A DNA stretch of 63,988 nucleotides, filler included, from Hausera hauseri (lineage: Eukaryota): the NCBI GenBank assembly GCA_046269625.1. It is 11 parts of 11 records of this genome, joined end to end, with 100 filler letters (N's around TTAATTAATTAA, not from the genome) between each part and the next. Parts side by side here need not be neighbours in the genome. Positions count along the whole stretch, not along the records: positions 30,881 to 35,072 come from JBJURY010709992.1; 10 more parts are not named here. One strand, 5' to 3'. The position numbers were made by a program, and so were the translations under genes. The notes under the pieces are model-generated. The model did no database searches. It saw nothing but the letters and a program-made list of their open reading frames with translations, and was not told the DNA's origin. Every line of letters starts with the position of its first letter. Within the stretch, counting starts at the first letter, position 1. Shown here one piece after another: positions 5,256 to 57,670 of this stretch.

Positions 5256-6290
5256 ATGGCAGCAGAGAATCCAGCCATAGCACAAAAGCTCGACATTTTT
5301 GCATTTGACTCTTCGAATCTGCCGGCATACGATGGCAATCCGGATGGATTAAACGACTTTTTAAGGACTTACAAATTGCACGCAGAAGGTGCTAGCCTTA
5401 CTCCTGAAGTAACAAAAAAACGCTTATCACTCTATCTTAAGAATTTAGCTGCTGATGCTTATAGTGAGCTTACCAACGACGAAAAAAAATCTTGGTCTTC
5501 CCTGGTAGGAGCCTTAAACCTCATATTATTGCCAACAGTAACGCCGCAACAGAAACTAATGGCATTTCAAAACAGAGTGCAACAGAAGGGTGAATCGGTA
5601 ACCCAGTTTGCTTTTGCATTAAAGAAACTCGCTAATAGTTATGTGAGCACCTTAAGAATAGCTAACGTAGCAAAAGCTAAAACAGATGCAGAGCGTGAGG
5701 CCGCGGAAAAGGCAACGCCACCAGATTTAGACGACATGATGACGACTCAGTTAATAAATGGCATATGGTCAAGAGATTTAGTTAAACAGTTTATTCTGGC
5801 CAGACCTGATAATTTTGAGAGGACATTACAATTAGCCCAACATTTAGAAATGGCATTAGAGAGATATGTCCAGCAAGGTGACAAACATGAAAGGAATAAT
5901 GACCGCAATAACCGTAATAGAAATGATAATCAAGATAACCGACGGTCTAATGATAATAACCGTAATCGAAGTTTCTATAACAGAAATTTCCACAATAGAA
6001 ATTAAAGAAACGACAGAAATTTCAGTTATAAGTGAAACACATACAACTAGTATAATAAACCGAGTTACAATTCAGATAAAAACCAAAGTGGTTACCGATC
6101 TAATAATAAATATACGGATAACAGATATGACGCAGATAATAGACAAATATTTCAGAGCCAGAATAAGAATACAAACAGAGCAAAATCGCCTGTGAATGAA
6201 GATGGCCGACAAAGGATAGGCCGGAATGGGAATTTAATCTGCTTCACATGTGGAAAAGAAGGACATATTGCTAGGTCATATCCAAATCCT
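5256..6290 (+). pseudogene. gag: Retrotransposon Gag with CCHC zinc knuckle (frameshifted)
   Basis: LPAYDGNPDGLNDFL...YLKNLAADAY...FQNRVQQKGESVTQF (Ty3/Gypsy Gag motif), N/R-rich linker, then CFTCGKEGHIARSY. The last Cys is mutated here but intact as CFTCGNEGHIVRSC in copy 2. Confidence 0.88.
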
Positions 6291-9200
6291 ACAAGTGTCA
6301 CATTTACTGAACCCAACAAAACAAGTATGATTAAGAATAACTTAGAAGCCATATATGGTAAACGAGGAGACATAAGCCTGATTATTGAAATGCAAGATTC
6401 ACGCAGATCTGTAAGAAATCTAAGTGAAACTAGTAATCCTCAAGTAATGAACGCTAGAAATGAATATGAAAAGAAATTACGACTAATGGAAGTTTATCAT
6501 GGATTAAGAGAACCACAAACCGAAGAAGAATGGGCTTTGGCACCAAATAATACTAACATGGCGCGTAAAAAGTCTATTCCGCAAGGAATAGCACAATCGG
6601 AGAAACCAACAACATCTAAGAATGTAGATATAGATGCAGAATCCAAAGAGAACTAACCAGACAAAACAACAGATGAAATTGAAAGTGAATTGATTGGGCC
6701 TTTATTTCTTAAAATAACAAAGAACAGAGGCAGAAGCCCTCCCATTAAAAAGAACATAGAAAGAAGAGAAGACATTTATACCGTAGACTCATCCTCAGAT
6801 ATTTCCATTACGCCTATAGGAATTTCAAAAGTGTTAGAAACGCCAGAAATAATAACTGCTAATGATGAAATCAATAAAATTTGCCCATTTCCCGCTAGTG
6901 AGGAAGAAACGGAAGATGATAACGACCTTGATGTAAAAAATGGAAAGTGCGACGTTTATGGAAGAATGCCGATGAACTGAAGAGGATGAGAATTAGATGT
7001 CACGATCCAGAGGTACTTAGACACAATTTGGAAAGGCTCAAGCAGATTAGTAAAGAAACAGATATATCTGGTAAGGAACAACAATTTTCGGAGAAATTAT
7101 ACAAGAGTTTAAAATTGTGGAGTGAAGGGAAACTCGATGAAGCAATTGAAGTAAGACAACCGGAAGAGGTACCATGAGATACGTTGATAAAATGGAACCA
7201 CGAATTAAAGTCGTGGACTAAAAGTGGAGTAGAATTTTCAGAAGGATGGAGTAAAAACGAAGACAGTATTAATGTGAAAGTTACTAAGGCTCAAGCGCTA
7301 CTATCTACCTTAGAAACAAACCCAAAACTGAAGAGAGTAGTCCGTAATTTAGAACGTATGATGGATAAAATTCTCTGTGCAATGATTAATCGGCTTGGGG
7401 AAAAACCGGTTAGCGATCGAAGTAGTATCGATTTAGAGATATTGGGTGTAGACCTGATAGATATTCCTCCTTTAATGGAAATGATAAAAATTGCCTTTGT
7501 CGAAAACCGACGATGTGCGGACTTAGAGAGCCGCATCAAAATGGAAAATGAAAAAAGGTCACAGATCAACAGTTTGAGAAATCGAATTATTTGTATAAAT
7601 AATGAAGAAACCAAATATATAATAAAAGCTTGTATCATAGAATTCGACGAATATAAGGATGAGCTCAATTATGTTAGTCAATTCATAAACTTCATAAAAG
7701 ACCCAGGCGACGAATTGAAAGGTGCCTACAAGATATTATACAAAATGATATTAGCCAAGCCAATAATCGCCAATCAATTGTCAAAATGGTCCGAATTAAT
7801 AACGAGATTAAGTAAATTAGTAGAAGAACGTAAGAAAAAATTTCCGGAAAGCGAACTATCGGTAAAAAGGCAACTGGAAGAAGGTCCACGTAACTTAACC
7901 ACCATATAAGCAGAAATAGACATCCGGGCACGGTTTGAAGCATTACGACTATTAAATTTTATGAAGAAGAAGCAAGAAAAGACAACCTTAGAAGAAATAT
8001 ATAAAATGATTGAAGAGACAAACTTCACGGAAAAGCGGAATATGACTTTCAATCTGTACTCAAGGTTAAGAAGTCTTCGACGAGAAGGAATCCAACACTT
8101 AACAGACAGACCTATCGACGAGATTTCAATTCAGGGCACCGAAACCTTGGATATTTGTCCGGGAGATAGAGCAGCCCTAATAGAAGCTGTGAGATTCCTG
8201 CACAAACCACAAGAATGTATAGCTGGTACGGATCAGAACTGTCACACCGATTTGACGAAAAGAAGAAACAACCAACGTCTTAGATTTGAAGATTCTGATT
8301 TCGTAAAGAAATTGCTGGATGCAATGGACCCCGATTCAAAAATTATAAATGAGATATATGGGTAGAAGTGGCGGAGATTAATGATGAAAGAATGAGTTAA
8401 TTAATGCCCAAAATACAACAGGTTGAAGAAACATTTATCAGAACAAAACAAAGAGCAACGGGGCTAGATAAATCTAACGAAAGAGTTTGAAGACTACCGG
8501 AACAAATACATTCTTACGGAATCAGAAGTTAAAAATAAGCTAGAATTTGTGCAGAGATGGCAAAGAGATGTAATTATTGAACTAAACGACTATTACCAAA
8601 AGGTATTTATCAATGCTAACGAGTAAGGCGAATTACTGAAAAGGATTCAATATGCTCGCGGAAATGGAATCGGTTTCCGGACCACGCAGATAAAAGAAGT
8701 ACAACCAAATTTAAGAGAAATTCGAGAAAATGTGCAAAGGACGAATACAGCTCTAGTAGATTATGGACTTCCAGATATTGGGAATGAACCAGAATAGGAT
8801 ACTTATTTAGAAGAAATAACGGCCGAAAATCTGGTAAGCCCAGTACACCTGGATGAGATACAAATGTATCCGCAGAATAGGAAATTTAATGTAAAAATAA
8901 TCCTAGACTCAGCATTAACCGAGAAGGACTTGATGGAATCACTTAACGTGAACATGACAGAAAATAAGTTCATATAACTTATTCCAACTTTGACTAAATT
9001 ATCTAGTGAGAATACAGTTTACAGCACGATGCCGAAACTTTTGATTAAAAAATATACAGACATCTTGAAGACTAAACCCGAAGTAGGGATGAAAATAATG
9101 ATATCATCCGAGTGGATGAAAGAAAAAGAGTGCGAGTTAACTACTCATTCCTACGTGAAGGATGTAAGAGAATGATTACTAAACAACGATGGGACGAATG

Positions 9201-9472
9201 AGCTAAATTACAGTTTTTATTTTAGAGGAAGAATACTCGATGACTTAGAACAATTAATAGATGTCGAAATTATTTCCGACAAAACCAATCGGATAGTAGT
9301 AATAATAGCCAATGAACAGACAAAGGAGGAAGCCACGCTTAAAGCTAAAACAGAACAGTGCGTAGGACAATTCATTGGAGTACGTGACACTGCAATGTAT
9401 TTCAAGTATTTACAGACGGATGAAGACAAGGAACAATACGACAAGAATCTAGTACCGCTAAGTGGAATGCCA
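6291..9472 (+). pseudogene. Long charged/helical polyprotein region containing a ubiquitin-like domain at 9089-9310
   Basis: Fragments 6690-8365 and 8990-9472 match copy 2 in order. MKIMISSEW...FYFRGRILDDLEQLIDVEI aligns without gaps to ubiquitin residues 1-61. Confidence 0.7.
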
Positions 9473-19740: not shown

Positions 19741-20699
19741 AAGCAACAATTTCTTAACTTTCGATCCAGGAGGACATTTATTAATTGGAGCTAGAGGCAA
19801 TTGGTCCAACTTTTCATGTTTGTCAGCCGGAATCCTTAATTCAACTCAATCGCTAAGCCTCGTTTTTCTCTAACAGAGTCAATAAAGGGTAATTGCTCAA
19901 TCAGACTATTTAATTTTTCTATATCATAAATACAAGTCAAATTCGCAAATGTCGAAGTTTGAGATAAANNNNNNNNNNNNNNNNNNNNNNNNNNNNNNNN
20001 NNNNNNNNNNNNTTAATTAATTAANNNNNNNNNNNNNNNNNNNNNNNNNNNNNNNNNNNNNNNNNNNNGTGGATGTCGTGACAGGTGCTGTTATTCATGG
20101 TATTGAAGATGACTTACGAAATTCATGTGGAGACGATTTTAACAATAGGACAAACTCCAGAAACCTCATACATGTCTAGTAATCCCGTCATAGAATTTGT
20201 CTTCTTCTTTGTTGAAAACAAATTTCTCTGCTCTTCTGTCTTACTGAATGAAGATTTCGAGAACGATGACTACTGTATTCACTCGACAAGCATTTTGGTG
20301 AGGACACGAGATGTATCCGTTATCGCAGCACTATATCGCCCTTCGTAGAAAAGGAATGATTAAAACAATATAGATAAAACAATAAATCGCAACCAATGAA
20401 CATTGTTTAGTGCCTATTCGGTTTTATTATGTATCAGTCGTTGTGTACCATCAATGAACTTTTCCTTGCTGTGGGTGGTAAATGTCACTGCGTGCCTTAC
20501 GTGATTGATTTGTGCTTAGCTGTTGAGCGGCATTTTCTGATAGAAGTTTGTGAGATTATGTGGTTCAGTAGGTGTAGCTAATGGAGGTGAAGGAAGTGGT
20601 GATGACGAAAGAGGACAAATGATTGCTGCAGCTACACAAAGTCGTTTAGAAAATCTGAAGACGGAATGGAAGAAGTAAGAGCTGAGTTGGAATTGGAGG

Positions 20700-23600
20700 T
20701 AGGTCGTTATCAATCGGCTATTTTATCTCTATACGCTTCGTCGTCTACAATGGGATTGGACTTCGCAATGGCACTTTTAACGCCAGTTTGCTTATTAGAT
20801 TGTATATTTTTTATTGCTGTGAAAAACTGATTTTCTTGGTCTTACTTTATTTCTAATTTTGCCTTCCTTCTCAATTCCGCTTTGCTTATATTATTTTCGT
20901 ATGTCTGCGCAATTTTTCCCCTCTTGTCTGATTGTCTCTTCCCAACGAGATTCAGCACTTTGTTCCGTATCGTCTGCGTCTTCCCGATTTAGATTCTCTC
21001 TCTCTGGCGTAGTGTTTCTCAAAGACATCAACGTAAACGCATCCTTACTTCATTCTTCGTCCTTTGCTTTTGGTAACTCACTGGGCTGACTTGCCATTGA
21101 TCTTCCGTCTTTCTGGGAAACTCCGGATCGTTCCACCACTCTGTAGTTTCTCGATGCCTAAACCACTAGACAGGTGATCTGCTGGGTTATGTTCTTATTT
21201 CACATAGTTTCTTTGTCCTCCGGTTGATTTCTCGTAGATGTATCCGACTCTGTTCGCAACAAACGTCTTGTATTATTTGCTACAGGCTTTGATCCAGTAC
21301 AGTACGTTGATTCTGTCCGTCCAGTATTCTGTATTCTTTATTGTTGCGCACGGTGTTTCTCACTTTCCTGCCCAGCTTGATCCTTATGCAGGCTGCCATC
21401 AATTTCTGCCTTTCGAACATAATCACTACCTTAATTTCTTCTTCCACTGTAGTTCTTAAATAAGCGACCTCTCCGTACCCCCATTTCGAGGCGTCAAAAT
21501 GTATGAATTTTACTGTCTCCGTTCTCTTGGAATTGTATTTTACTACATTCAAGCTCTCCTAACCTTTTATCCTTGTTCTTATTTTCTCGTTTAATTTCTT
21601 CGGGATCTTTTCGTCCCACTCCACATGCATCATCCACATTTGTTGTGAGTATACCTTACCTAATTAAGAAAGCCTAACGGATCGAATACCTTCGCTAGAA
21701 CACTTAATAGTGTTTTTTTCGTTATTTCTATCTATTGCTTGTCATGATTCTCAAGCCCAAATTTATCATCTACGATTTACCATTTCATCCCCAGCGACTT
21801 GGTGATAAAGTCCGTTTTTTCAAATACTAAATTCCTTAGCTCGACTTGTAGTAGGTATTAAGTTTAGTAGTTCATTGGAATTCGATACCCACTTGTGTGG
21901 CTCCATCGCAGCCTTTTTCCAGACTTTATTTAGCTCATTGTATAGTGAGACAGCTTCCTTTTCGGTACTGACTGAATCAATGCCGTCATCTATGTATGTA
22001 GATCACTCTATTGTTTCCACAGCTCTAGGTAATTTATCCTTAAACTTTTCGGCGTTATGCCTTGAGATCAGTTGCGCCAGAAACGGAGAGGCATTCATTC
22101 CAAATACCAACCGATTGAACTCATCTTGAGTTTTCCATCCTTGTACCATAGGAATCTCAAATATTTTTGATCCTCTTGCTTTACCTTAATCTGCAAGAGC
22201 ATTTCTCGGATGTCACATGACGATCCATGGGCGTTTCTTCATCCTCATTAGTATGTCTATAATATACAGTTGTAATTTTCGACCGAGATTGACAAAGTCG
22301 TTCAGGCATGCCCCGATATCTCGAAGCAGTATCGAAGACTTTTCGACATTATGTAGTTTTCTTTTTAATTTTCATGACCGGAAAATGCGGTATCAACCAA
22401 GCTGTTTTCTATTCTCGTTCTTCCACCACTCGTATATACTCTTCCTGCGTATGCGTTTATATTACCCTCTCGTAGGCTGCCTTCGCCTTTCCATCTTTAT
22501 TCAACTTATTCCGTATAGTTTCTAACCTTTTTTGTGCAATCCATTAATTACATGGCAACGGCACGCAGTACCTATTCTCTTCATAAGTTGTTTCTTTTCT
22601 TACCTGCATTATGATTTCGTCTAGTATGCTTCTCCGAGACTCCTTTGAATAAATGTTGAATTCGACCTCCCACAATCGGTTGAGGTTATTTTGAAGTTGC
22701 TCGGTCCTTGTCCAAAAGGTCCTCACAAAATTGCTATTCACGTTCTTCTTTCCCTCCTTTATTTTTTCTACACAAGTCCAGCCCAACGGACTTAACCGCG
22801 CCACTGGCTCACCCTTTTTGCCGTACACCTTATTTGATCGGTGTAATTCCAAATAATTCGCCCCAATGATACCATCCACTTCTAACCTGTGGGACATCGT
22901 AGGGAATTTTAGGTTCTTTCGATGGATCTACCTCTGTTTTTCTATAGACCATTTCACTGTCCTCATCCTTCCGGTTAGCTTTCTCATGGTCTACGCTTCG
23001 AACTGGACCTCCATCGATCGATCGAGACTTATCAATTCCATTTTTACCCGACCAATGGACGTCTCTGTTTTCCTGCGACGACTGTTATCGTCAGCCTCTG
23101 TCTTTCTATCAACATTTAACTCTTCAAACACTTGAATATACGAAACTCCGCACTAGCACTGTCCAGCAGCATTATTGCTTTCCTCATTTTATTTCCATTC
23201 TTTAGCCATACTTCCACTGTCCTCAGAGCTACCATTTCTTGTTCGTCTTCTCCTGGGAACCTTGGGTTACGTAAGTTCTAACACCTTTTTGTTTATTTGG
23301 TACCCCTTTTCCTTTATTCTTTGACGTCCTTGACGCAGACCTCTTCGCAGGGATCTCCGACTTCTAGTTCCACATTCCTTTTGTTACAGATGTTTTTTTT
23401 CATTTTCCTTTTTACCAATTTTTTCACTTAAAAATTTACAATCACCACCATACCTACAATCTCCATTTACAAAGACCCTGCATACTCTTCTTTGATCATT
23501 TTGCTAGGTTCATGTAAATATTTGCAATCATCCCCGAATCTACATTGACCATTTTTTATCGTAATTCCAACATTTCTGGGACTGAACCTCTTGCTCCGAA

Positions 23601-23990
23601 TTGGTGCGGTAAGCCTGTATCCCATTTTTAACCTCCTTATCATTTTTTCTGAAACTGGGATTCTCGAACTCTTTCCGACTGTGATTTCTTTGTGAAAAAC
23701 GACTGTCCATCTCCTGCCGACAAACGTCGACCACTCTGACTGGTATTAAACACCTCTATTCCTCTTACCATTTCTATAGAATTTCTCCTTACCATCGCCT
23801 CTATTTCTACCCAACTGTTGAATTCTTCTACAGTCCTGCTCGTCCTTTTCTCGACGATATGCCTTTCCCACAGTAACACGGTTGATTCTTGCAGTTTCTC
23901 CATAAGGTTTTGGTACAATAAACCTCACCTAAGCTCCTCTGTTCTCCCCAGATTTCTTAATCTCGCTATGTATCTACCCTAGAATTAATT
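20700..23990 (-). mobile_element. BEL/Pao LTR retrotransposon remnant (gag, protease, RT, RNase H; integrase not seen)
   Basis: MLLDSAS (protease), IIGANY...PVARLSPLGW, FNRLVFGMNASPFLA, TYIDDGIDS, FDASKWGYGEVAYLR, NPADHLS. Boundaries approximate. Confidence 0.85.
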
Positions 23991-24291
23991 TTCTTATCCG
24001 TAAACCCCCTTTTCTTCAAAACTATCATCAACTTATACCGACAATCATCGCTACATGGCGGAAATGTTCATGTTTAATTCTATTTTCAATCTCAATCGTT
24101 ACACTCCATCCAATCATACCAACAGCGTCCCTTTCCACACAACTCACAGTAGCATCCACGAAATCAGAAATTGGGAGTAACAACTACCAATATTATTAAA
24201 ATCACCTCTAACTGCAATAACAGAAACGTTGTTTGACCTTTTCTCGGTTTCATGCCTTTCACAGAAATAAGATTGTTAGTAGATCGCGTCT

Positions 24292-24573
24292 CTACCATCC
24301 CGACCTCAACATCACTTGATGATATTTCCTGATGATATTGTTTTCCCACATGTTTTGAATGGTTTCATCTATTTTGCTTTCTAGATTCACTGGTTGTCTA
24401 TGCAGTTTGATGTTAATTGGTGCGCTTTTTGTGTCTATTCTATGCTTGATCAATGTTGTACAGCCGATATCCCAATTGTCGGCCATTAAGACTTGGTTTC
24501 TCTGTACTATGTCTAATACCACTGAGTTTTCGTTTATCCGTAGAATCTCCTTCACTCTTGAATTGTTCTTCAT
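24292..24573 (-). mobile_element. Ty3/Gypsy reverse transcriptase N-terminal fragment (different family)
   Basis: DIGCTTLIKHRIDTKSAPINIKLHRQP...IDETIQNMWENNIIR. Confidence 0.7.
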
Positions 24574-24941
24574 TCGTCACTTTTCGACCGAATTTTGCTT
24601 CTAAGTTGCATACATAATAACTTTGTTCATTCCCATCTTTCTGTCTCCAACCTAATTCGATTCCAGAAGTCTTGTAGTTCCATTCCTCCGATTATTTCTG
24701 GTAATATTTCTGTCACTACTATGGAAGTTACGCGCTTCTGTACACCCTTGAGTTCCACATTTACGGATAGTTCATCCATGCAGTCTAGGGGGCTACCATT
24801 TGCACGACGGAGCGTGATATCTGATTTCTCCAGCTGAACATNNNNNNNNNNNNNNNNNNNNNNNNNNNNNNNNNNNNNNNNNNNNTTAATTAATTAANNN
24901 NNNNNNNNNNNNNNNNNNNNNNNNNNNNNNNNNNNNNNNNN

Positions 24942-27096
24942 TATTTTGTATTTTTTGAAGTCTCTTCGCAAATTTTATTCCTGGGTAATAATTGTATCGG
25001 ACGAATGCCTTTTCTGCCGTTTCTAAATCTAATTTTTTCAATGCGTGTTCAGCTAACTTTTTCCACATTTTGTTATGTTGACTAAGTTGTAATTGTTGAA
25101 GATTGTCATGTGAAAGAGAAATAGGAATAACGTCGGAATCAGAATCAGACGAATCGGATGAATTACTAGAATCAGAAGAGTTACTAGAAGAATAAAACTG
25201 TTCCGATTCCAACTCTGTTAATGGTTTGTGCGGTGGAATATTCGAACTTTGTTTCCTGATTCTAATTGACTCAATTTTCAAACTGTAACGATCAAATTGC
25301 TGTTGGAAAAATGTGGTAATGTCATTTGGATTTGACAATAAAGTATCGATTTCGCGAAAATTTCCCGGATTATTAGCATAATCGAGATGCAATTGTGAAT
25401 TTAAATGGTCGTATAAATTGGAATATGTGACACTGCAACATTCGCAAAATGCCAATGATTTACGATTTCTTCTCATTGAACCGTCTTCTGATTTCGAGTC
25501 GGTGTCATCGTTATCAACTACATGGATCTCTGATTTTGACTCGACAACAGATTTGTCAGTTTGATCCGTATTGTTAACAACATTGTAAAGAATTTGAAGT
25601 GACTCTTTAGACCACCGAATCAAAGGGAACCGTTGCTTCATTGCTTCAAAAAAGACGTATTCCGTTAAGGTTTCTAACGACAATGCAAAATCGGCAATTG
25701 CTAATATCTGACGTTCACTGATCGTATCATAAATATCAGCGGAATTCATTATCGTGGAATGAACAATTTCAATTATCGTATTCAATTTAACTGACTTTAC
25801 GCTTGTCGAAACCGTTTTGGAATGCTTCAAAATATCTTGCAGACTTTCAGAAGTGTCTGGTGATTTTAAAAGAATCAATGAGTTCCACTTGTTTTTCGCA
25901 AGATCTTTGTTTGAACTGTACCCGAAAGAGTCTATAGAAAACTTTGGGGCGACATCAACTGGTGATAATAAGGTTTCTTGACTAACAGTAAATGTCATAG
26001 TTTCAGAAGTTAAAATCAAAGGCCTAAAATGCATATCCGTTTTTGGTTTGGACAATTTAACGCGTTTTGAATTTGACTGTCTGTCCCAAGTTCTGGAAAC
26101 ATACGGCTGAAATGCACTTTTTCTGAAATCATCGTTGTTAATTTTTATACTTTGAAGTAAATCGTTATTAGAAACAACATATCTGAGTTCTTTAAGAAAA
26201 GATGGATTCTGCTGAAAAAACTCATGAACATCTAGTGGAAGTTTTGTTTCTGTTTTCCTCAGTTTTCCCTTCATATCCCTTATTGAAATATCGTATAAAT
26301 ACTGTTGTTTTAAACTTGAAGCTGAATCTAAGCGTATGTACCACCAATGACTCCATCGTTGAAATAGACTGATGATTACGTTCCGGCACTTAACTCCATG
26401 GAATGCGTGTTGGCTCTTACAAAAGTACAAAACGTCATTAATGATCAAATCAGTGGAATTTTGCATTCGATAAATCATCATAAGAATATGATTTGATATT
26501 TTCACTCTATTATCGTTCTGAATAACATCGATCATAATTTTACCAACTGCATTTATATATTTAATGTCATAATATTTCATGATAAGGCTATCTTTCGAGC
26601 AATACTTACAAATATAAGAAGGGAAATGTAAAATAATTTTGCCGTTTGGTTTAAAAAATATATTGTGGATTGTAATGCACAAACATTTGCTCAGATTTGT
26701 TTCATTAAGAAGGGTGTTTGAAATTTTTCTAAATAGTATGTATAAAAATATAAGACATTCTTGATCGGAGTAAAAAATGGGATCATAACAGTAATTCCAT
26801 AATTGACTGAGACTGAAATAACCGATCTGTAAATAAAGCATGTCAGTGCAATTTTTAGTGATCTGTAAATTTCAAACGTTTTCCTCTGATCCGGTTCCAG
26901 ACTTTTCATTGGATAGAGAACCTAGAGAAAGTCTGCTTGCCGTTACACTTCTATCAGTTTCAGATTCTACGTCAGTTATTAAACTGTTTTCTGTTGAAAG
27001 AAAAGATTCTTGCAATTCCGAATACAATTCTTCATTATCGATCGGAAGAATTGACACTTTAATTCGTTTATTCCCATATTCCAATGGAGCGTCCAT
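24942..27096 (-). CDS. DBF4-type zinc-finger protein with N-terminal KIND-like domain and C-terminal WDR35/IFT121-like segment; two exons, 3' end lost in gap
   Basis: Exon 1 is 27096-26878 (MDAPLEY..., 73 codons). A phase-0 GT-AG intron at 26877-26827 carries CACTGAC. Exon 2 is open to the gap and contains FCECCSVTYSNLYDHLNSQLHLDYANNPGNFREIDTLL (zf-DBF). Confidence 0.72.
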
Positions 27097-29049: not shown

Positions 29050-30378
29050 CCTTTCCCACAATATTTTCCAAATAAAACAGAAAGAATGATCCTTTCTCAT
29101 AAGGCACCCTCGAGAACGCATCGTCGGGATCAAGACCGACAAGATGCGGATTCAATTTGCAGAACTCGTGACCCGGTCCGTGAATATCATTGAATGCATC
29201 CAACTAATCCAATGGAAAATAATTCGACAGGCCATAGATCTACTCACCGATTCCTGCAATTCAGCCAGACCACCTTTAATATGGAAATGTCGATAATCCG
29301 TTGAGTTAACATGGGCCTCCAGAATCAACCTCTCAACGTAATTCGTATGACCCTCGTTGACCCAGAAATGATCCCAATTGCTGTTCGTCACCAAATTTCC
29401 CGTCCATGAATGTGCCATTTCGTGGGCAAGAACGTGAACCTGAGACCGATCGCCACTGATTAGACATGGCGTGACAAACGTCAGACACGGATTTTCCATA
29501 CCACCGTACGGGAATGATGGTGGCAACACTAAAACATCGTAAACACCCCATTCGTACGGTCCACAAATCGACTCGGCAATGCTCAAAATGCTTTCCATTT
29601 CGGCAAATTCCCACGCAGCTGCTTCGACCATTTCTGGCTCACTCCAAACTGTACAACGCGGGCCAACATTGATTCCTTTCAAATTACCACAGACAATGGC
29701 GATCAGATATGATGGAACGGGGATCTTCTGTAAAAATGAGTAAGCCATGTGATCTTTGCAGTCATTTTCTTCTAATTTAACGGCACTCATTAGAACTTTA
29801 ACGTTTTTTGGTGCTTCTACTCGAGCTGTAAACGGAGCCTTTACCGATGGTGTGTCTTGACATGGAAGGAGACTTCTTGCATGAACGGCCTGACATTGAC
29901 TGAATAAATACGGCTCCTTTCCACCTAAGGTCATCGATGGTTTTAACCACTGCAGAGCAGTACAACCACTGGTTGTCGAATAGACGATTTTCACCAAGAA
30001 TCTGAACAACCACCATAAAACAACCACCAGAATTAAATAAAATTACTTTTCCTTTTTTAACATTATCGGAATTTCAATGCAACTCCAAATGTCGCCGGTT
30101 TTGCTCACGAATGGAACTTTGTTTCCATCGACAGTTACTTCTTCAATATTCAATTTATTAGCGTCCAAAATCTAAATAAATTATTAAAAAGGCATAAAAT
30201 TAATATCTGTTAAATTTACCAGAACATCGGCTTTAGAATTCAGAGTTCGAATTTCATGCTCGACAAATCCGCTTAATGTTTCGGAAGCGAAATCAACTTT
30301 CCAATTAAAATGAGACTTCTCGGTAACAAAGTCTTCAGCGTTTGCATATGACGTTGGATCGTTCTTAGATAACTCCAT
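29050..30378 (-). CDS. LTA4H: Leukotriene A4 hydrolase-like M1 aminopeptidase, 4 exons, C-terminal domain not found
   Basis: Exons 30378-30220, 30171-30047, 30001-29248, 29203-29050 with GT-AG introns of 48, 45 and 44 nt. Motifs: [42 protein letters not shown]...WVNEG, VPYEKG. Confidence 0.9.
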
Positions 30379-30880: not shown

Positions 30881-31935
30881 TCGTAATTCAGTTTGCATTC
30901 ATTCAATATTATTTCTCTATATAAGTTTCTTATTTCTTGTCGAACGTAGTTAATCAAGTAATCTATTTTGTTATCGAAATATTGCGTTAATTTGATATCT
31001 TTTCTATCTATTTTAATTTTTGCTTAGGATACCTCTCTCGATGAGAGATATAGTCCTTTGTAATTGGTCTTAAACATTTCTTCATTACATTTATTGGTCG
31101 CCCCATAATTTTAAAACGCATCGTCTCTTCAGGGTTCTGTGAATACACTACCGTTGCTACTTCCGTCATTTTTACTTCTTTGACCCCTTCTCTATAGGTT
31201 GTTGTTTCTTTCTCGGCCGTTTTTCCTATTGTCTTATTAAATTTCCCTTCCTTTAATAGTGTCAAATGGCATCTATTTGAAGATGTTTCCCATGTCATTT
31301 TTGATTCTCCGGTATCACATTCACCGCTCTCATATTCGCATTCGCTCATTATTGTCATGAGTCTTGTTTGTGAATTGAATAATTCTTCGTATTCTTTTAA
31401 CTGGACCTGGTAGTCCTCGATTGCACCGTTCTTGGAGCATTCGTTCCTCCGACATCGTAATCTACCCATTTACAAGTACCTTCCATTGTTTTATCTATTC
31501 TTCCTGCTCGAAAAATTCTGGTATATTTTATCTTTCCTCGTACAGCTGGGATTTGAGCATTCTGTATAGTTATGATCCCGATTTTAAAAGCGTCTTGGCA
31601 TTCAGCTCGTGATATTATTATTGGCTCAAAAGGGGTCGTCGGTTCAATAATGGCCGAATTTCCTGAATAATATGCACAATTAAATAAAAAGAATGACTTC
31701 TTCACGTAGCACTCTCTTATCTTGACTTTTATAAATTCTGACTCCTGATACACCTAATATCAAGGACCACTGGTTGTTGTCAATTGTTTTGGGTCCGCTT
31801 CGGGGCATTTTTCTAAATCTATTAGCGAATACTTTTGTCCCTCTTTTGGTTTCGAACAATCATAAGCCACCATTCCCATCGCTTTAGGCATGCATAATGA
31901 TGCTTTCAGTAATATTTGTAGTATTTCCATAAATG
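30881..31935 (-). pseudogene. env: Chuvirus-type (class III, gB-like) envelope glycoprotein N-terminal ectodomain
   Basis: Hydrophobic signal, then VAYDC...YSLIDLEKCP...VYQESEF..VKIRECYVK..F.FNC...ISRAECQ...GTCK...CEYESGEC...W....C.L.L..G. I recognise this Cys spacing from chuvirus glycoproteins and their retrotransposon-captured homologs. Confidence 0.72.
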
Positions 31936-32219
31936 ACATTCCACCCAGACCTTGTTTATTACTGGTTGGTTGGGTTGTGGTTGGTCTTTCCGGTGTTTCC
32001 CTTTCTAATCTTAACCTACCGTTCATCAGACTAGGTATCCATCCACCTCTGCATTGTACCCAACTTCCTAAAGTATCACGCAGGATCTTAACGGTTACTT
32101 TTATATTACGCTCTATTTCCTCCAAATTCTGTTTGGTAATTAATCACTATTACTTTATATATTAAATAGGCCACCGCCGTAACTGCCTTTTACCGAGTAA
32201 TCCCTGTAGCGAACATCTT

Positions 32220-33035
32220 CTATAATATGTCCTGTTCGTGGAGTTCGTTAATTCGTTCTTCATTAATATTTTCGTAAAATTGTCTACTAATTCTCAACAT
32301 GTTATTCCTTAATGTCTGAAACAATTCATGTGGAATAGTTACCTGCATATCGAATGACGCAAATGACGTATGAAGTTTTGCTAATAACGTTCTCAATAGT
32401 GGATCTATATCCACTGATTCCGGTGCCGTTTCTGTTCCTGCTAATAGTAATCGTCGTACAATTTCCTCATTCCTATCCTTTCTATTTCGAATGTCACTTA
32501 TCTTTGTTCCTTTTGGCCTTCCTTTACTCCGTGCTTCTGTTTGTACCGTAACATCCTGAGTATCAGCTAACAACTGTTCTTTCCCTCCTTGGGGTTCCTG
32601 GGGTTCTACTTCTCTTATTATGTTAGCTATTGTTTCTTCCGCCTTCAAATCGGGGCGTATTTCGGTTATAGTGATGATATTGTAATTTTCACTTCGGCAC
32701 CCAATCCTTAATAATTGATCATAACCGTATAATGTTCGGCCAAAGAAACTTAACCCATAAACCTTTTCTTAATAAAATGGCTCTAATTCTTCAATCTTTT
32801 CCCTTAATGTCAAAACATCATCCATTTCATTCATTCTAATGATCCTTATGTCCTGATTTCTTTCCTTTAATGTTATTCTTACTGTCTCGTTCCGTTTCTT
32901 CTTACCTTCGGCTGTCTTGGCTAATATAGTTCTTGCTATTTCTCGTATTGGGCTACTATCATGGGCTAATAGCAACAATTGAAATAGAATCTCATTAATC
33001 TTAACTACTGTTACCTTATTATCTATTAATTTCAA
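32220..33035 (-). pseudogene. Accessory region with ubiquitin-like domain (one in-frame TAA at 32769-32771)
   Basis: ORFs 32769-33035 and 32220-32648 are in the same frame: VRITLKE...DDVLTLREKIEELE...YGLSFFGRTLYGYDQLLRIGCRSENYNIITIT. Confidence 0.65.
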
Positions 33036-33326
33036 TATTGCAGTTGTAGCTTAATTAACGTCTCTTATATTCTCAGAGTTTATAGCAACTACTGCCTAAA
33101 TAATATCATCTTCGGCATCCAAATCTATCTCTATATCCTGCATTACCTGTTCAATGACAGTTTCATCAAATATTTTTGTTGATGGGTTTTCTTCCTCTGG
33201 TGTTAACTCACTAGTGTTGACTTTCTTTCGTCCCCTTTTTCTTTCTATATCACTTTTTTCTATCGACGTTTCCCTTGATTCTGCTTTTATTATTTTCTTA
33301 TTACCCTTCTTTCTCCCTTGTCTAGT

Positions 33327-34400
33327 TTATCCTTCTTTCGGCTTCTCCTCTAATACATAAATACTATTTTCTCTTAGTCTTTTCTGTTGGATTTTGTAAT
33401 CTTTTAACTCCATTGCTAACTGAGTCCTCATGCGTTGCAACAGTACGTTATCAACGTAATTTACCTTTTCTTTCTTTTTATCTTTCTTATTATCTTCGTG
33501 TTCACTTTCCTCATCTTTATCGGAAGACTCCTCTGATGTAGCTGATGTGTAATTCTGTTTCTTCTCTCTCTTTTCATCTTTCGTCCTTGTAGATTCTTTC
33601 TTGCGTGATCTACAAGTTTTTGCTATATGGCCATATTTGTTACAATTAAAACATTTTAACCTACTCTCTGAATCTATACTTGGCAACGAACGGCCGTCTT
33701 TGGTGCAATGCTTCTTTGACTTATCCCCGTCTTTTTTTAACTTGAATCTTACCTTCTTTTCTACATCGGATTAAGCCTCTGTAGCTGACGTTTGCGAGAA
33801 GCTTCGATTTTTATTGTATCTCTGGTACCTTTGTGTACTATTGTTTCTTCGTTTGTAATTGTTTGTATTATCTTTTGACTTTGTCCATTTATACAATTCG
33901 GCGTCCCGTTCAGCTTTTCGAGCCTTCCTAATTGCCTCTTGAAAAGTGGAGGGGTCGGCATGCAATATAATACTTCTTAACTTTCCTTCCAACCCATATT
34001 AAAACTGAGCCAACAACGCATTATTTCGTATTACTGCATCATGATAAGCCCTCGCGGCTAACTTTGGCAGTGCAAATACGACGTCCTGAACTGTCTCGCC
34101 TTTTCGTTGCCTCCTTCGTATAAACCCCTCTATCCTTCCTTTTCCTGAAGGATCAACTAGGAACTTTTGAGGTAACTTATCTTTGACAGTCTTCCAGTCC
34201 ATATTATCTTCTTCTGGCATCTGGCAATAGATTGTTAATGCAGTTCTTTTCAGATGAAGAGGTAACCTCTCCATTCGTTGTTGGTCATTCCATCCGAAAC
34301 TCTTGGAATATACCTCATATTTCATGAGGAAATCTTGTACGTCTTTTTGTCCTAAAAACTTCTTCATGGGCAGGGTGAAGTCAGCTTTTGACTGTATCAC
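33327..34400 (-). pseudogene. gag: Retrotransposon Gag plus CCHC zinc knuckle
   Basis: KFLGQKDVQDFLMKYE...LPLHLKRTAL...RRQRKGETVQD...FQEAIRKARKAE...CFNCNKYGHIAKTC. Confidence 0.88.
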
Positions 34401-34582
34401 CTGTTCTACATTATGTTCATTTCGGGCAATTCAGTATTCCTTTTCTGTACTTAAATTGGCTATAAACTCTAACCAAAATAGTAAATTATTGTCCGAATCT
34501 ACTTTACACGGTGTCCCTTTTCTAGTCGTAATCTTAACGGTTTATTCGGCTACTATCCAAAGGTTTCTTGATTCGTTTTAGA

Positions 34583-34600
34583 TCCCCGGTCACGGCACCA
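34583..34600 (-). promoter_or_regulatory. Primer-binding site, tRNA-His type
   Basis: TGGTGCCGTGAC.. lies two bases after an LTR-terminal CA and is complementary to the conserved tRNA-His 3' end (..GUCACGGCACCA). Confidence 0.8.
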
Positions 34601-34602
34601 GT

Positions 34603-35072
34603 TGTTCAATCTTTACTAATTTCACCTGGGACAGGCTTCGAATACTTAATTTGTGAATTAATGGGTGAACAAGGTTCGGAAGAGATACCCAGATATCCTA
34701 TTCCTACCTAGCCTTAACTTATGTCTGTATGTAGGGGTCGAATAGGCTGTGGGCCTATGAAGATCAATTTATTTACTAAGGTTGTAATTGGCTCTTTTTC
34801 AATTGAAAATTAAACGGGCTGCCGTCAGGTAGGGTGGACCTGGACAGCTGTTTTCCAAATTTACTTAAACTTATACACTTACTTAATTACTTAGAAATGA
34901 TAACGAATATGAATACAATAAATATAATGTATTAAAAGAATATAGTAAAATGCAATTCTCATAAACTTACAGCAATAAGCAGAAATTAGCACAATAATAA
35001 AAATTTGTTCGAACTGTTTCACACAACACTAGTATTTATACTTGGTTGTTCGTCTCATTTTTCATATAATAT
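34603..35072 (-). repeat. 5' LTR of family C (partial)
   Basis: Ends ...GAACA immediately before the PBS. TATAAATA is present on the minus strand near 35040. The outer end is lost in the gap. Confidence 0.6.
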
Positions 35073-35571: not shown

Positions 35572-38500
35572 GTGCAACAGCAGGATCAGCAGAAGCAGCA
35601 ACAGCAAGAGGAACAGATACAACAGGAACCCGACATTAATGTCAAATACGATCTAAACAGATATTACGTGGACATAAAAGCCACCATGTCGGTGGCAAAA
35701 ACAACAACGCAATTGAGACATGTTCCGCAAAATGTGCGCAACCAGTTGGAATCTGAAGTGGAGAAATTCCAACACCACCACTACCAACACCACAGCAAAG
35801 TGCAATTGAAGGTGACAGGAAACAATGGTACCTGTCACATCGAGCTGTACCTTATGTCAATAATTTTTTTGTCGACATCGGCGAAGAGCTCTATGAGAAA
35901 ATCGCCAGCTACACGGAAAAGTGTAGTGGATGACGAATTCTACGAATTGTCACCTTAGGCTTATCATAACAAAGTCAAGTGACATAATATATTTGTCCGG
36001 ACGATCATGCATACTGACACTTGCAGCTCTAAAGCAGTTTCTGGCGGTAGTGAATCTAAAAAATACTAACGATGAATATTGTTTTGTTTACCGTATTTTG
36101 GCGGTATTGAAATATGACGAAGTGGAGAGACATAATGCATCTCGTCCAAAACGATATCGGAAATATTTTTCCGAATTGGATTTCGATGAATGCTGGATGC
36201 CGATGAAACTGAAATTCATTCCGGCTTTTGAACGGCGTAATCCGACACTGGCAATCAATGTGTACCGGTACAACACAACTGTAGAAATACCGGCGGATAA
36301 ATAAATTTATAAAAATCCACACGTGGATATAATCTATCGAAATCGGAACCTAAATGGCCGCTCGGTAAATTTGTTGCTACTGGAACAAAAAGAAAAGTAC
36401 CATTACGTTGCAGTGACAAATCTGGACAGAGTACTAAATATGGAGCATGACCATTTCCTCCAAAAACGGAAACAGTATAAACGGTGTCTTGTATATCTTC
36501 ATGGATTGAGGTCGGAAACAACATAGGAGAAACATGTGACTCTGTGCAGACAAAATTTTTCAGGAACCACAATGTATGTCATGCCCGTCAAACAAGAACT
36601 CAGGTTAACTGACTGGTCAAAAACAGACAGTCCGGCATATGTAGTATATGCCGATATCGAAGCTACCTTACCACAGCACAACATATATGACCAAAAACAT
36701 GTTCCAATCGCCATCGGTATGTTGGTTGTCCCAATAAAAGCTCCAGGCCGTCAACCTCAGTATTGTGTTTTCCACGGATGGAATTGTGTACGCGATTTCT
36801 TGCAGCAGTTGCAAACCACAGTGGAAACTGAAATCGCACCCTGGTACAGTAGAAATAGCAAAAAACCCTTGATGTGGACAGATGAGGATAAACGCCTGAC
36901 GTTTACAATCACAGATGAATGTTACCTGTGTCACAGAATATTACCGTTTGATGCACAGAAATTGTTCATACCAGATCACGATCATTTTATCGGTCTATAT
37001 CTCGGAGCAGCATGTAATTCATGCAATGTGGCAAGGCGTGTGCGGCCATTCCTGTCGGTGGTATTTCATAACTTCAGGGGTTATGATTATCACCATATTT
37101 TGAAATTAGCAATAAACGGATTTCCGCACTGGGAACTATCCATAATTCCGACTACGATGGAGAAATACCTGTCACTGTCTGCTCATATAAACCGGTTCCA
37201 TGTACGCTTTCTTGATTCATTGCAATTTCTCAATGAATCATTGACAAAGCGGGTAAATGCCTTGCCAGATGTGCCGATAGCACTGACGTAGTTCCCCGCA
37301 CATATTGCACGCAGTAAAGGCATATTTTCACATGACTTTGCAGCATCGTATGAGCAACTGCGGACAGCAGATGATTTACCTCCGCGATGGACAGGTATCG
37401 CAGAAGATGAATACCGGAAAACATAGAGGAGTTGGACAGAACTCAGCTGTAGAAACATGTTGGATTACATGCTTCAGTACCTTAAACTGGACGTGTACTT
37501 ATGAGCTGATGTATTCCAGGAATTTCGGGCGAAAGCGTTGGCTGAATGTAGGCTGGAGCCACTTAACTTTTATTCCATACCGGGAATGAGTTAGGCGTCA
37601 GCTTTAATTTCACTGGATCGAGACATTAAGCTGCTGCAAGAACCGGAAATGTACCGGCTGTTTTATGTTGGTATTCGCGGCGGCGTGACATTTGTCAACA
37701 AGCATCAGGTCCGTGTTACCGATACCACATCACTGTTGTATATTTATATTAATAACCTGTATGGCTGGGCGCTTTCGCAACCCTTACCGTACGGTTCATT
37801 CAAATGGGTTGTCGACAGACAAGATCTGGACGACATAATGGTCAACCTACCACGAGCAGACATGGCAGGCATAGTCGGATACCTGATGGAGGTCGATGGC
37901 GTTGTACTAGATGAGCTGCACGACGTTTTTGACGATTTACCGGTCGCACCATTTAACCAATGTCCGCCAGGCTCAAAAGTGAAAAAACTGCTAATGACAC
38001 ATGAACCAAAGCTGAATTACCTGGTCTGTTGGCGTCTCCTACAGTTCTACATGCAGCTTGGTGTACGTGTCACACAGCTGCATCGTGCAATCACGTTCAT
38101 GAGTAAGGCGCAGTTTCGGCGGTCAATGCACATTGCCGATGGATTAGTTGCGGTGCTGTTAAACCGGGAAGAAGTCGTTCTGGACCGACCAAGTTACATG
38201 GGACAAGTGTTATTGGACCTGAACAAGTTGCAGATGTATGAGCTACAATATCCCGATTTGGCACGTTACCGGCAAATGTTTGACGGCTGTGACATAAGTA
38301 TAATTGCCGGTGACACAGACAGTTTTTTCCAGGAAGTTTTTTGTCAATCGCAAACAGCTACTGCAGCAAATGCAGTCAGATGGATTACTGGAACACGTCT
38401 AACTATCCACTGTATCATCTGTTGCACAGCAGCGCGATCACCAACAAAATCGGCTGCTTCAAGGATGAAAGTGAAAGTCGTGTCCAGTATCGGTAATAGA

Positions 38501-50600: not shown

Positions 50601-53130
50601 GGTAGTAAGCCTTAGCTAAATCGATCGTCGAATAAACTGAGATAGTATTAAGTTGATGTAATGTCTTTGACTAATGGTAGTGGGTATGTGTCCATTGTTG
50701 TTAACGTATTAAGTTGACGATAATCGCAACATGGTCGGAAAGATCCATCTCTTTTGTACCTGTAGGGGTGAAGAACATAGTGATTTAGATCTACGGACGA
50801 TACCCGATTGTTCAAGTTCCATAAATTCAGCTTCTACTGCCTGTCTGCGTTGCGGTGACAATGGACGGACCTTTTTTCTAATTGGCCTTTGATGTCTTGT
50901 AATTATATGGTGGTAAATGCTATTTACTGGAGTGAAATTCCTATCTTTCTGGAGTATCCGAGGACAAAAGGTATGAACGAATTGTTGTAGATTTGCGGGT
51001 AGTTGTTGGAATGTTGTAACTTATAATGAACCGAGATTGCTAGCAGTACTTGGTATATGATTAGTTGTTGATGAGGAATCATGTGGAGCGTGAAGTAGGA
51101 TGGCCTGGTCCGGAACCGTGTTTGAGTAAGTGTTAGTGTTCAGTGATTTTACAGAAAATACCAGATTGTTATTGGGATTAGAACGAAATACCGAGTGTTA
51201 TAAAATAGATAGCTTATTTAACGTGGATTGTGTTGTCGTTGTGATGCTGTCTATTTTTGCATTAAGGTTTGCAAATGTATTTGCTTTCAGACAGCGTCGT
51301 TTACAATCAACTGGTAAATTGTAATGTGAAAGAAAATCTGAGCCAAGTGTTGCAGTCTGGACGTTATAGACTGTAAACGTCCAATGAAATGATGAGGGGA
51401 AATTTTGTACAGTGAAATCAAGTTTGCAGGTTCCGGCGACAAGGAGACCGTGACCAGATGCAGTGTATAATGGTTATATTCTAGATGAAGTATGTTGAAA
51501 CGAAAAAGAAAATGGAAGTAATGATATCGCTGCACCAGTATCAATGAGAAAATCTATTGATTGGATGTTAGGATTGGAGATAGTAGTTTTTAATGTAAAA
51601 ACAGCAAATGAAACATGTCGGCGAAAACAATTAGATAGATTGCCATTGCCAGGATCTGCCGAGGATACTGGCGGCGAAATCCGTTTTTTGGATTGGTGAA
51701 CTAGAACGATTGCTATTAGAGATGTTGGTACGTCTATCGATGGAATAGTTTTTTTAGTTTTGAATGTACAGCCGGTAATACAACTCCTAGCATTAGGACC
51801 GAATTTTGAATGATAGACGCAAATCATATTACTTGAATCTAGATTTGGCGAATAATATTTACACCATAAGCAACATTTATTTGCGTTGTTACTAAATTTG
51901 GTGTGGTAATAGCATACGAAAGACCTCGTAGGTGACGGTGTTCGACTTCTAGCAGGAGAACGTGTTCGATTAGATGGAGGCACATTACGACGCTGTAAAG
52001 AAAGATTATTCAATTTATCATTGATAGAGTTGATGGTGTGATGGAGTGCCGCATTTTCGGCGCGTAATTCGTTTAACTGCTGTTCGAGTGAAACATTGTT
52101 GGTAGTAACTGCTGCAGAAATAACTGGTTGAGTGTGTACGTTCAAAACCTCATAGGTTTTATCCGCCAGTTCGGCTAATTTATCTAATGTTGTCGATTCT
52201 TCAACGACAGTAAGGCCCTAATTCGTATGGGCAATGCATTCAGGAAGTAGCGTCGCAAAAGATGGGCGTTATGTTGTTTCGTCACGCCAAGTGTTTGAAG
52301 TTGCACGAGTGACGTTCTGAGAAAATCAGATGGCTTCTGCTCCCCATTGCATTGTCGTTGAAGAAGCTGTGAATTATTGAGTCCATAGATGGTTCCGTAA
52401 GTTTCAAAACGGCGTCGTAAAGATGCGTGTATGGATCAGGTTTCTGGAAGATATCGAGCAAATCATGAATTTCCGTTTTTACAGTTGTTGGTAAAAGACA
52501 GCAGGTTATGGGCCTTAGTTACCGGATGAGTGATGTTGTTGAATTGCAGCCAGAGTTTGTGGAATCTAAGCCACATTTTATTAGACTGGTTGTGGTCAAT
52601 AAAATATTCTGTGCACTGAGAAGTGTGTTTGACTGTCGAGGTTGTAGAAGCATAACTACTGAAATGAGATGGCGTAATGACGGTCGGTGGTTTTGGATGA
52701 AAAGGAAAATGTGGTGATTTTGGAGTATTTTTATCAGTGGTGTCGATGGTGGGTGAAGAATTCATCCCGCCACGTATGCGAATGTGTATGTTAATGATGA
52801 TGCAATGCGTTGAAGGTACGGAAAGGTTACAAAGGTTGCCATTAGTTACTGGTAGATTATTGTATGTAAGATAGAAGTCGGAGATGTTGGCGATGTGTAC
52901 CATGTAGTTGTATAGATAGGATGCATCAACCGAATTTGCTATTCGGTGTGTTAGTAAATGGTAATTGTTTAGAAAGAATAAGAAAGAAATAGTTGGTGTA
53001 AACTCAAATGGTTGGTGTGGTGACGAAACACACCATTGCGTGGGACTCGTTGACTAAACACAGAAAGTTGAGTGGCTGATCATTCTATAGTTTGTTTGTA
53101 ACTCAAGAGTATGAGATGACTGGACCACTT
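47639..53130 (-). mobile_element. Ty3/Gypsy family A copy 2, nearly complete internal region (gag-PR-RT-RH-INT), degraded
   Basis: FLIDTGAAISLLP, CCDYRQLN, MPFGLRNAAQMFQR, YIDDILV, LTTDAS, HIDIVGPLP...ISDQGSQF...HPQSNGLLERFH. LTR end ACTACA at 47966 adjoins a PPT-like tract. The outer LTR edge and the 5' LTR are uncertain. Confidence 0.95.
51474..53083 (-). pseudogene. gag: Gag-protease with N-terminal ubiquitin-like leader
   Basis: Frame starts at ATG 53083 (one TAG), reads ...IHIRIRGG-MNSSP..., then Gag (KPSDFLR, LDKLAELADK), two CxYHxKF..NA..C...C motifs and the DTGA protease. Confidence 0.8.
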
Positions 53131-54116: not shown

Positions 54117-54690
54117 CTCGTCGTGTCTCTCCAAAAGGGTTGCCGGTGAACTGACTTTCTTTACAACCGGTTCTTCGTCTTCATTGAAATTTAATGGCGG
54201 AATTTTAGACACATTATACGTTTTGCGTTTTGTGGCCTTCGAGCTTGCTGGAGTCTTTTTGATAATAAGATTCTTTCATTTTTTTGTGACAAATTAGTAA
54301 TCAAATCAAATAAATCATCTTCAGATATTTGCTTTGTTTTGAACTGGGTAGCCTGTTTAATTTTCGATTCACCAAGTTCTTTACCAACAACCAAATACGT
54401 CGTTTTACCGCTAACTGTTTTCGTTACTTTTCCACCATGTTTCTGCATCAGCGTTTCTGCTGTGTCTCGTTCGATACTTTTAAAAACTATTAATGACGAA
54501 TGTCAATCCAAGTAGACAATTCGGGTCGCCGTCCGGAATTTCTTTCGTTCCCAACGCTTCGTGATTCGGCCGATTCAGATACGCATAATAAGCGGCTTTG
54601 CTCGCCGATTTTGGTGAAGACATTGAGGTACCGGATGTTATCGGTGTTTTTACTGGAGTGTATTTCTTTTCTTCAACTTTTGTGCCTGCT
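54117..54690 (-). pseudogene. RFC1: Replication factor C subunit 1 BRCT-domain fragment
   Basis: AYYAYLNRPNHEALGTKEIPDGDPNCLLGLTFVI / SIERDTAETLMQKHGGKVTKTVSGKTTYLVVG...ISEDDLFDLI; frameshifted. Confidence 0.85.
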
Positions 54691-56960: not shown

Positions 56961-56999
56961 CATTATGAGTTTCACTATGCGAATTCCAATTATTCGTAT

Positions 57000-57365
57000 T
57001 CATATCATTGGCAGATTGTTTTTTGGTACCATGACATGATTTTCAGTTACCGATTGTGTATTATTGTATACATTCAATTTTTTATCCGATTTATAAAAAT
57101 CTGTAGCAGAAATATCTGTTTCTTTATTTTCCGGTTTTTTGTTAAAATACTGCTCAATTGTCACATCTTTTTTATTCAATTTTTTTTGTTCTTCTGCTTC
57201 ATTTGTTTTTGCTTGTTCCTTCTTCGGTTGAAATTTATTTTTAATTTCAGATAAATCAAATTCTACATCCGATTCTGATTCTGATGAAAAAGCTTCAGGA
57301 GCAATTTCAAAACGAAGTATTTTTAACTTTATCTGACACCAATGTAGATTTGAAGATAATTCCAT
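57000..57365 (-). pseudogene. Charged low-complexity segment, possibly RFC1 N-terminal region
   Basis: VTIEQYFN and ISATDFY short motifs in a K/E-rich frame directly upstream of the UBA1 segment. Confidence 0.3.
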
Positions 57366-57670
57366 AATAAAAGTCCACTAAAGCGATAACTAAGTATATT
57401 TTTATTCAAACTAACAATTGTTTGATTCTAAAAAAATCATTATCATATTTATATCTGTACAAAAGTTTATATATGGTTAATAAAAATTTTTCTGGTAGAA
57501 TTCGATAAATATTTTCTTTTCGGTAGAACGACAATTCATTTCGACAGTTAAAGTTCGAAATATTATATTTGACGAGTATTTTCATTTTGAAAGAACATTG
57601 GGAAAATTTCTGAGTGACACTTGTTTAGGTTTTGATTAGCCTGTCTTTGCACTTTATTGTGATCATTCCA

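Follow-up and report, generated by a model that had tools for sequence, protein, structure and literature searches.

The stretch of DNA analyzed here (the window) comprises 63,988 nucleotides (nt) from Hausera hauseri and consists of eleven contigs joined by N-linkers; contigs adjoining across a linker are unrelated. One of them, contig A (30881-35072), is a single gap-free contig of 4,192 bases between N-linkers and carries an element on its minus strand. In the direction of the element, a primer-binding site (PBS) is followed by a Gypsy Gag, a CCHC knuckle, a charged and helical region, a ubiquitin-like domain (UBL), a signal peptide, and a chuvirus-type glycoprotein (Table 1). This order on one contig had been proposed in a first-pass annotation and was borne out by the PBS match, Pfam, profile searches, and fold comparison. 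The domains listed there are present, but a probable Bcl-2-like domain and the end of the contig inside env had been missed. Copies of a second family are found on contig B1 and on contig B2 (4057-9472). B1 and B2 were 76% identical over 2,624 nt, and neither showed nucleotide likeness to A. In a six-frame Pfam analysis (18 of 18 frames, E ≤ 0.01), no protease, reverse transcriptase (RT), RNase H, or integrase was detected in A, B1, or B2, confirming the earlier statement that no protease, RT, or integrase lies between gag and env. The pol genes elsewhere in the window are located on other contigs and come from a different, envelope-less Gypsy element. What contig A contains is the 5' half, in decayed form, of a Ty3/Gypsy retroelement with a high copy number; this copy is dead.

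Table 1. Features of contig A and of the two family B contigs, in positions of the window.
Feature	Position	Strand	Basis and remarks
Putative 5' LTR	34603..35028	-	Deduced from the PBS; 3' end adjoins the PBS, far end uncertain
tRNA-His primer-binding site	34583..34600	-	Sequence match to the tRNA-His 3' end
Ty3/Gypsy-type Gag capsid, one in-frame stop	33870..34400	-	PF19259, E 0.0014, below cut-off
Single CCHC zinc knuckle	33609..33656	-	PF00098, E 3e-4
Conserved four-helix domain of no known family, directly before the UBL	32892..33134	-	Profile and P0004 model
Internal ubiquitin-like domain with one in-frame stop; lacks a di-glycine tail	32655..32885	-	Profile and fold match
Probable Bcl-2-like helical domain, BH2-type W-x3-GGW at its end; two stops and one frameshift	32012..32435	-	PF00452, sub-cut-off
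Internal signal peptide, weak in A	31874..31939	-	Sequence; clearer in P0004, L001, and P0065
N-terminal half of chuvirus/gB-type (class III) Env with two stops and two frameshifts; truncated where the contig ends	30881..31873	-	PF24664
B1: from CCHC through the long helical insert, the helical domain, and the UBL to an eroded Bcl-2-like stretch (by eye), then signal peptide and VYDC, where the contig ends	59994..63988	-	Pfam, profile, by eye
B2: from Gag and CCHC through the long helical insert to the helical domain and the UBL (8894-9352); the contig then breaks off	5256..9472	+	Profile, sequence

At the 5' end of A, the putative LTR terminates in ...AACA two bases before the PBS, and a matching TGTT.. 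start was found by eye at 35028. No second LTR copy for A was found in the window. The reverse complement of the PBS was identical at 12 of 12 positions to the His_GUG 12-mer (3' end) given in supplement 1 of PMC13524379, and an identical tRNA-His PBS is located ahead of a related gag in L002. As in Ty3/Gypsy elements, a tRNA PBS lies directly behind a putative LTR ending in CA. Of the LTR and tRNA-His PBS annotated previously, the PBS was thus found, while the LTR itself is placed by means of the PBS. The Ty3/Gypsy combination of capsid and CCHC nucleocapsid was recognized by PF19259, PF00098, and a match between the Gag of the related protein P0004 (see below) and the dArc2 capsid (E 0.0068). 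Gags related to that of A sit on PR-RT-RH-IN pols in P0064 and P0015.

For the homologue search, the first frame of A was compared with 1.84 billion representative proteins. There were 1,037 Gag-like matches at E ≤ 0.001, and among the 150 matches listed, nearly all lie over Gag. One full-length match to A is among these 150: P0004 (1,130 aa, 37% identity, E 5e-101), which contains Gag, knuckle, the cassette of helical domain, UBL, and probable Bcl-2-like domain, the signal peptide, and Env in an unbroken frame and ends inside Env. Env is in frame with gag, as in Burro-type elements (see below), in P0004, whereas in A this frame is broken by lesions. The cassette of A is also present in P0006. 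The contig of P0006, L001, continues in frame past one TGA to a signal peptide and an Env (PF24664, E 2.8e-42), which runs until the contig end. The in-frame TGA is located just before the signal peptide, and the 4.2-kb frame is otherwise open. Three more proteins, P0010, P0039, and P0041, have the helical domain and the UBL in common with A.

A further relative, P0065 (1,352 aa), has one frame in which a related Gag is followed by a full Env, including its signal peptide and a membrane segment (PF24664, E 2.7e-95), and then by an aspartic-protease motif (PF00077, E 0.0018, below cut-off). It has no UBL/Bcl-2 cassette. Its Env is 38% identical to that of L001, which is the same distance as that between the Env of P0004 and that of L001. 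The source contigs of P0039, P0041, and P0065 are 23.5 kb, 14.8 kb, and 9.0 kb long, respectively. A capsid tree computed in quick mode from 64 of the 150 matching rows was poorly resolved; it contained no supported grouping of P0065 with A, nor were the cassette-bearing sequences recovered as a single clade.

Of the 150 listed relatives, 20 were analyzed with Pfam. Among the 150 matches listed, the cassette profile found its own five members only, and the Env profile its own two only. When 7995 proteins were scored with the cassette profile, P0004 was the sole match. Word-seeded protein searches yielded nothing among 5931 candidates with the A cassette and nothing among 464 candidates with the A Env. 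No relative was found in phages or viral contigs or, using P0004 as the query, in metagenomes. A scan with a Gag pattern gave two loci from 341 stretches.

The four-helix domain of A was found by a profile built without rows from the window (iE 2.3e-6 over 32892-33080), and in the P0004 model, this domain has a pLDDT of 81-86. A cassette profile of eight rows retrieved ubiquitin-family chains in all 60 matches listed, the best single UBL being hPLIC-2 (ubiquilin; E 2.8e-6). The cassette model of P0004, with a block pLDDT of mostly 81-91 across the helical domain and the UBL, was superimposed on ubiquitin with a Z score of 13.2 and an rmsd of 1.4 A over 75 residues.

The stretch between the UBL and the signal peptide is helical and probably corresponds to a Bcl-2-like domain. 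PF00452 (Bcl-2) was the best Pfam match of A at 32018-32140 (E 0.0092), the sole Pfam match of the equivalent stretch in L001 (E 0.031), and the second-ranked match of P0004 (E 0.013 over profile positions 6-100 of 100), in each case below cut-off. The three sequences with these matches are about 21-26% alike. A profile of the domain preceding the signal peptide matched BAX chains over the BH1-BH2 region at E 0.2-0.5, again below cut-off. The P0004 model has a pLDDT under 50 over this stretch, which is low confidence. Bcl-2 was not among the matches listed in the fold searches, where the listings were filled by the UBL and the Bcl-2-like part was barely covered, and an Atlas search with P0004 600-755 gave no usable match. 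Since every match is sub-cut-off and the model is unreliable in this part, we consider the Bcl-2 assignment probable only. An RGG before the signal peptide was considered as a ubiquitin cleavage site and rejected: it is located about 200 residues past the UBL, inside the BH2-type motif.

The internal signal peptide of A starts with a Met. Its hydrophobicity profile had no window above the cut, and that of P0004 had one. The Env of A contains the AYDC motif and matches PF24664 at positions 4-163 (E 6.4e-16) and 266-341 of 653 (E 3.3e-6). An Env stop had been annotated at 31008; the frame instead continues over two frameshifts to the last bases of the contig, where position 341 of 653 is reached. 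Contig A stops about halfway through env, and the 3' half of env and everything beyond lie outside the contig. Since A is cut off inside env, it says nothing direct about what is located 3' of it. The Env sequences of A and P0004 are 46-54% identical, in three pieces. A gB/chuvirus-type Env behind gag with no pol between them, as found here, is characteristic of the GAG-ENV-POL group. The unbroken P0004 supports the earlier proposal of one ancestral Gag-UBL-Env polyprotein. P0004 itself demonstrates a Gag-UBL-Bcl2-Env polyprotein, with the Bcl2 part probable only.

Family B is longer between the knuckle and the cassette, by about 700 residues of helical sequence without assignment. A direct BLASTP comparison of A with B1 over the cassette was not significant (E 1.6). 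However, similarity between the accessory regions of A and B, which had been set in advance as a test of their relationship, was detected with a cassette profile built without B rows: it found B2 with iE 3e-16 and B1 with iE 4e-10, with 0 matches in 66 reversed frames. The profile of the helical domain alone found both B copies (6e-5 and 7e-4). In profile-profile comparison of A with B, the probability was 19% with two rows each and 89% with six non-B rows. The single-sequence fold of B1 had a pLDDT of 33 and was unusable. The sequence profiles show that families A and B share a homologous helical+UBL cassette. Among the motifs reported earlier as shared around the UBL, the GRP motif was rejected as proof of kinship, being short, basic, and variable in position. 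Family B had been described as having the same order as A. This holds for B2 through the UBL and for B1 to the signal peptide; the Env of B1 is limited to VYDC at the contig end.

Both A and B are highly repeated families. In run X1, all 30 bins of A were covered, by 8,132 contig records, and so were all 30 bins of B1, by 7,899. This run could stem from the source sample itself or from a close relative and is hence not independent, and its summed depth is not a copy number. Five of the 11 counted stops of A are at sites where at least 98% of the X1 depth differs (among the best 40 of approximately 1,000 differences), which makes these lesions look private to copy A.

The layout had been regarded as unlike anything described, which turned out to be incorrect: an in-frame Ubi/SUMO-like domain, BCL2, and Env were reported in 2019 for Burro (PMC6431247), and GAG-ENV-POL errantiviruses were described in 2022-2026. 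Burro, or GYPSM1, is a giant planarian Gypsy (Arkhipova and Yushenova, GBE 2019, which also reports Jurka 2007 and Grohme 2018). According to the description in PMC6431247, its frame of roughly 5,000 aa contains Gag, CCHC, Ubi2/SUMO-like, BCL2-like, mononegavirus-type Env, and PR/pol; it is present in thousands of copies, and decayed copies with stops and frameshifts occur in Dugesia japonica. The order Ubi-like, then (probable) BCL2-like, then Env is common to Burro and to A, P0004, and L001, and the UBL among these is firm. In contrast to the two or three knuckles described for Burro (PMC6431247), A has one. The approximately 240 residues from knuckle to UBL in A leave too little room for giant cargo of the Burro kind (MATH, BIR, ankyrin, Smc), and Pfam matched none of these domains in any of the 18 frames of the three contigs. 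With one knuckle and no giant cargo, A is not Burro proper.

We know of no UBL/Bcl-2 cassette in the non-canonical nematode endogenous retroviruses. In these, env and pol are flipped in a metavirus (Sacco et al. 2022, J Gen Virol 103:1739, as cited in PMC13524379). Chary and Hayashi (eLife 2026; PMC13524379) describe flatworm, nematode, and bryozoan errantiviruses as GAG-ENV-POL with gB-type Env only, and list Smed_errantivirus_1 to _6 of Schmidtea mediterranea, which are of HSV/gB type (C1a) and have 1 to 215 copies. The Schmidtea elements and A are both multi-copy and both have a Gypsy Gag followed by a gB/chuvirus-type Env; in the Schmidtea elements, env precedes pol. By eye, the six Schmidtea C1a envelopes and that of A share VYQES, REC, C-TGES, MRF, and TNYKG-type motifs in the same order, whereas the nematode envelope rows of PMC13524379 are without these motifs and clearly different. 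The Schmidtea errantiviruses span about 14.5-18 kb with flanks, which leaves room for a compact cassette. They differ from A in that PMC13524379 assigns no PBS to the six elements, and the word 'ubiquitin' is absent from its main text. By this envelope likeness, seen by eye, A is probably a member of the flatworm C1a errantivirus group. A flatworm is also the probable host, judging by the same likeness. By analogy, A is best understood as working like Burro and the flatworm GAG-ENV-POL errantiviruses.

Other published elements are more distant. Anakin of mosquitoes (Dezordi et al. 2020, PMC7642597) has also captured a chuvirus-type glycoprotein, but on a BEL/Pao backbone in the order gag-pol-env, while A has a Gypsy-type capsid and no pol between gag and env. 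For arthropods, PMC10084718 gives no clear Gypsy capture in the text considered, and the corresponding text of PMC11410931 added nothing on domains. Troyka was rejected as a relative since, as described in the available text of PMC12440569, it has no envelope.

Pol was not seen for any cassette-bearing sequence; A, B1, B2, and L001 end at contig ends, and P0004 ends inside Env. The Gag-Env-protease frame of P0065 and the published GAG-ENV-POL elements indicate that pol most likely follows env. We therefore consider it likely that an A-type element is a single frame of Gag, knuckle, helical domain, UBL, probable Bcl-2-like domain, signal peptide, and Env, continued past the contig end by PR-RT-RH-IN. 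Of the two options offered by the first-pass annotation, a satellite or pol downstream of env, the second is thereby favored.

From general retroelement and membrane biology, the following mechanism can be proposed. A single LTR-driven RNA, primed by tRNA-His, would be translated as one polyprotein. Gag and the cargo would be made in the cytosol, and the internal signal peptide would then thread Env into the ER and be cut. The membrane anchor of Env would halt translocation and leave the Pol part in the cytosol again, where the protease of the element would trim it. The Bcl-2-like domain could keep the producing or the receiving cell alive. Having no di-glycine tail, the UBL would serve as an adaptor that binds the proteasome or other proteins and not as a conjugated tag.

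An alternative is that A belongs to a non-autonomous, pol-less enveloped satellite, which provides its own Gag, cargo, and Env and obtains RT and integrase from a helper with shared PBS and LTR ends. That pol was seen in none of the cassette-bearing sequences and that the pol genes of the window come from a different, envelope-less Gypsy would both be in line with this. However, in each sequence that can be read, the contig breaks off within env or ahead of it, which makes the absence of pol uninformative; P0065, with a sister envelope, runs on into a protease, and the published elements with such a cassette and such an envelope type carry pol downstream. We consider this explanation, for which nothing positive was found, unlikely, and it keeps this level of probability solely through the truncation of all copies that can be read. 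If true, the satellite would be an infectious non-autonomous LTR element amplified to very many copies: it would encode the Gag that packages its RNA as well as a fusogen and anti-death cargo, and a helper errantivirus would supply the RT and integrase for its copying. This would be new.

The location of pol after env is retained in a second alternative, according to which Gag-cargo and Env are separate products, with a leaky stop or an independent start ahead of the signal peptide dividing them and setting the Gag:Env:Pol ratio. The TGA that immediately precedes the signal peptide in L001, whose frame is otherwise open, and the Met at the start of the signal peptide in A are compatible with such a switch, but P0004 reads through without a stop, and a lone stop in a lone contig can be a lesion. 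Its probability is lower still. Finally, internal deletions are common in LTR elements and the copies are decayed, but it is very improbable that they arose by deletion of pol from an ordinary gag-pol-env element, given the recurrence of the same gag-cassette-env junctions in four divergent lineages (A/P0004, B, L001), the X1 records over all 30 bins of A, and the unbroken frame of P0004, which largely refutes this reading.

We thus prefer the single frame with pol after env. Its layout has been published already, and A and B most likely add two divergent, compact lineages to it; Repbase entries or figure panels may already describe the cassette in compact elements. The helical+UBL(+Bcl-2-like) cassette is old and common to elements just 15-35% alike, which suggests selection for retention of the cargo. 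To learn whether host cell death is blocked by a retroelement, P0004, being compact and unbroken, would be much easier to work with than Burro and its 5,000 residues.

The cassette of these elements opens with a four-helix domain that precedes the UBL. This domain was kept in every cassette bearer, and the model, built on the cassette of the unbroken relative P0004, was confident for it. The bundle might resemble those of the TFIIS N-terminal type. In family B, approximately 700 residues of helical sequence separate the knuckle from the cassette, and a Pfam search of this insert gave no match.

In L001, the contig in which cassette, signal peptide and Env share one frame, the 4.2-kb frame, elsewhere open, is interrupted by a sole in-frame TGA (L001:3058-3060), which follows the Bcl-2-like domain and precedes the signal peptide of Env. 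This TGA may be a lesion; alternatively, it may act as a control point for read-through. P0096 is a 1,061-aa Gag-like protein from another source. Its C-terminal end looks like a signal peptide followed by the start of a cysteine-rich ectodomain; the profile built from related envelopes did not match P0096.

Features located in the window
Feature	Position (strand)	Evidence
Four-helix domain preceding UBL	32892-33134 (-), 8894-9076 (+), 61024-61179 (-)	Conservation, model
Helical insert of family B, knuckle to cassette	61200-63700 (-), 6400-8850 (+)	Sequence, Pfam
Open stretch 5' of envelope-less Gypsy gag-pol	52463-53053 (-)	By eye
Decayed element, BEL/Pao-like in appearance	20069-24841 (-)	By eye
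Ubiquitin-activating enzyme E1 gene, broken	54200-57377 (-)	ThiF, E1_FCCH, SCCH
Host gene	24943-26871 (-)	643-aa open frame with DBF zinc finger
Host gene	29152-30042 (-)	Partial M1 aminopeptidase

The E1 gene is apparently intronless, and its 3' end continues into another stretch, which may resemble the BRCT region of RFC1. Two CCCH-type zinc-finger motifs were found near 23500-23600, inside the decayed BEL/Pao-like element. Matches to a DNA polymerase B of the protein-primed type and to endonuclease VII at 36527-37288 (+) mark a putative fragment of a Polinton-like or related DNA element.

The open stretch upstream of the envelope-less Gypsy gag-pol had no Pfam match. Read by eye, it terminates in IRIRGG, with Met as the next residue, an arrangement resembling a ubiquitin-type cleavage tail placed before Gag.
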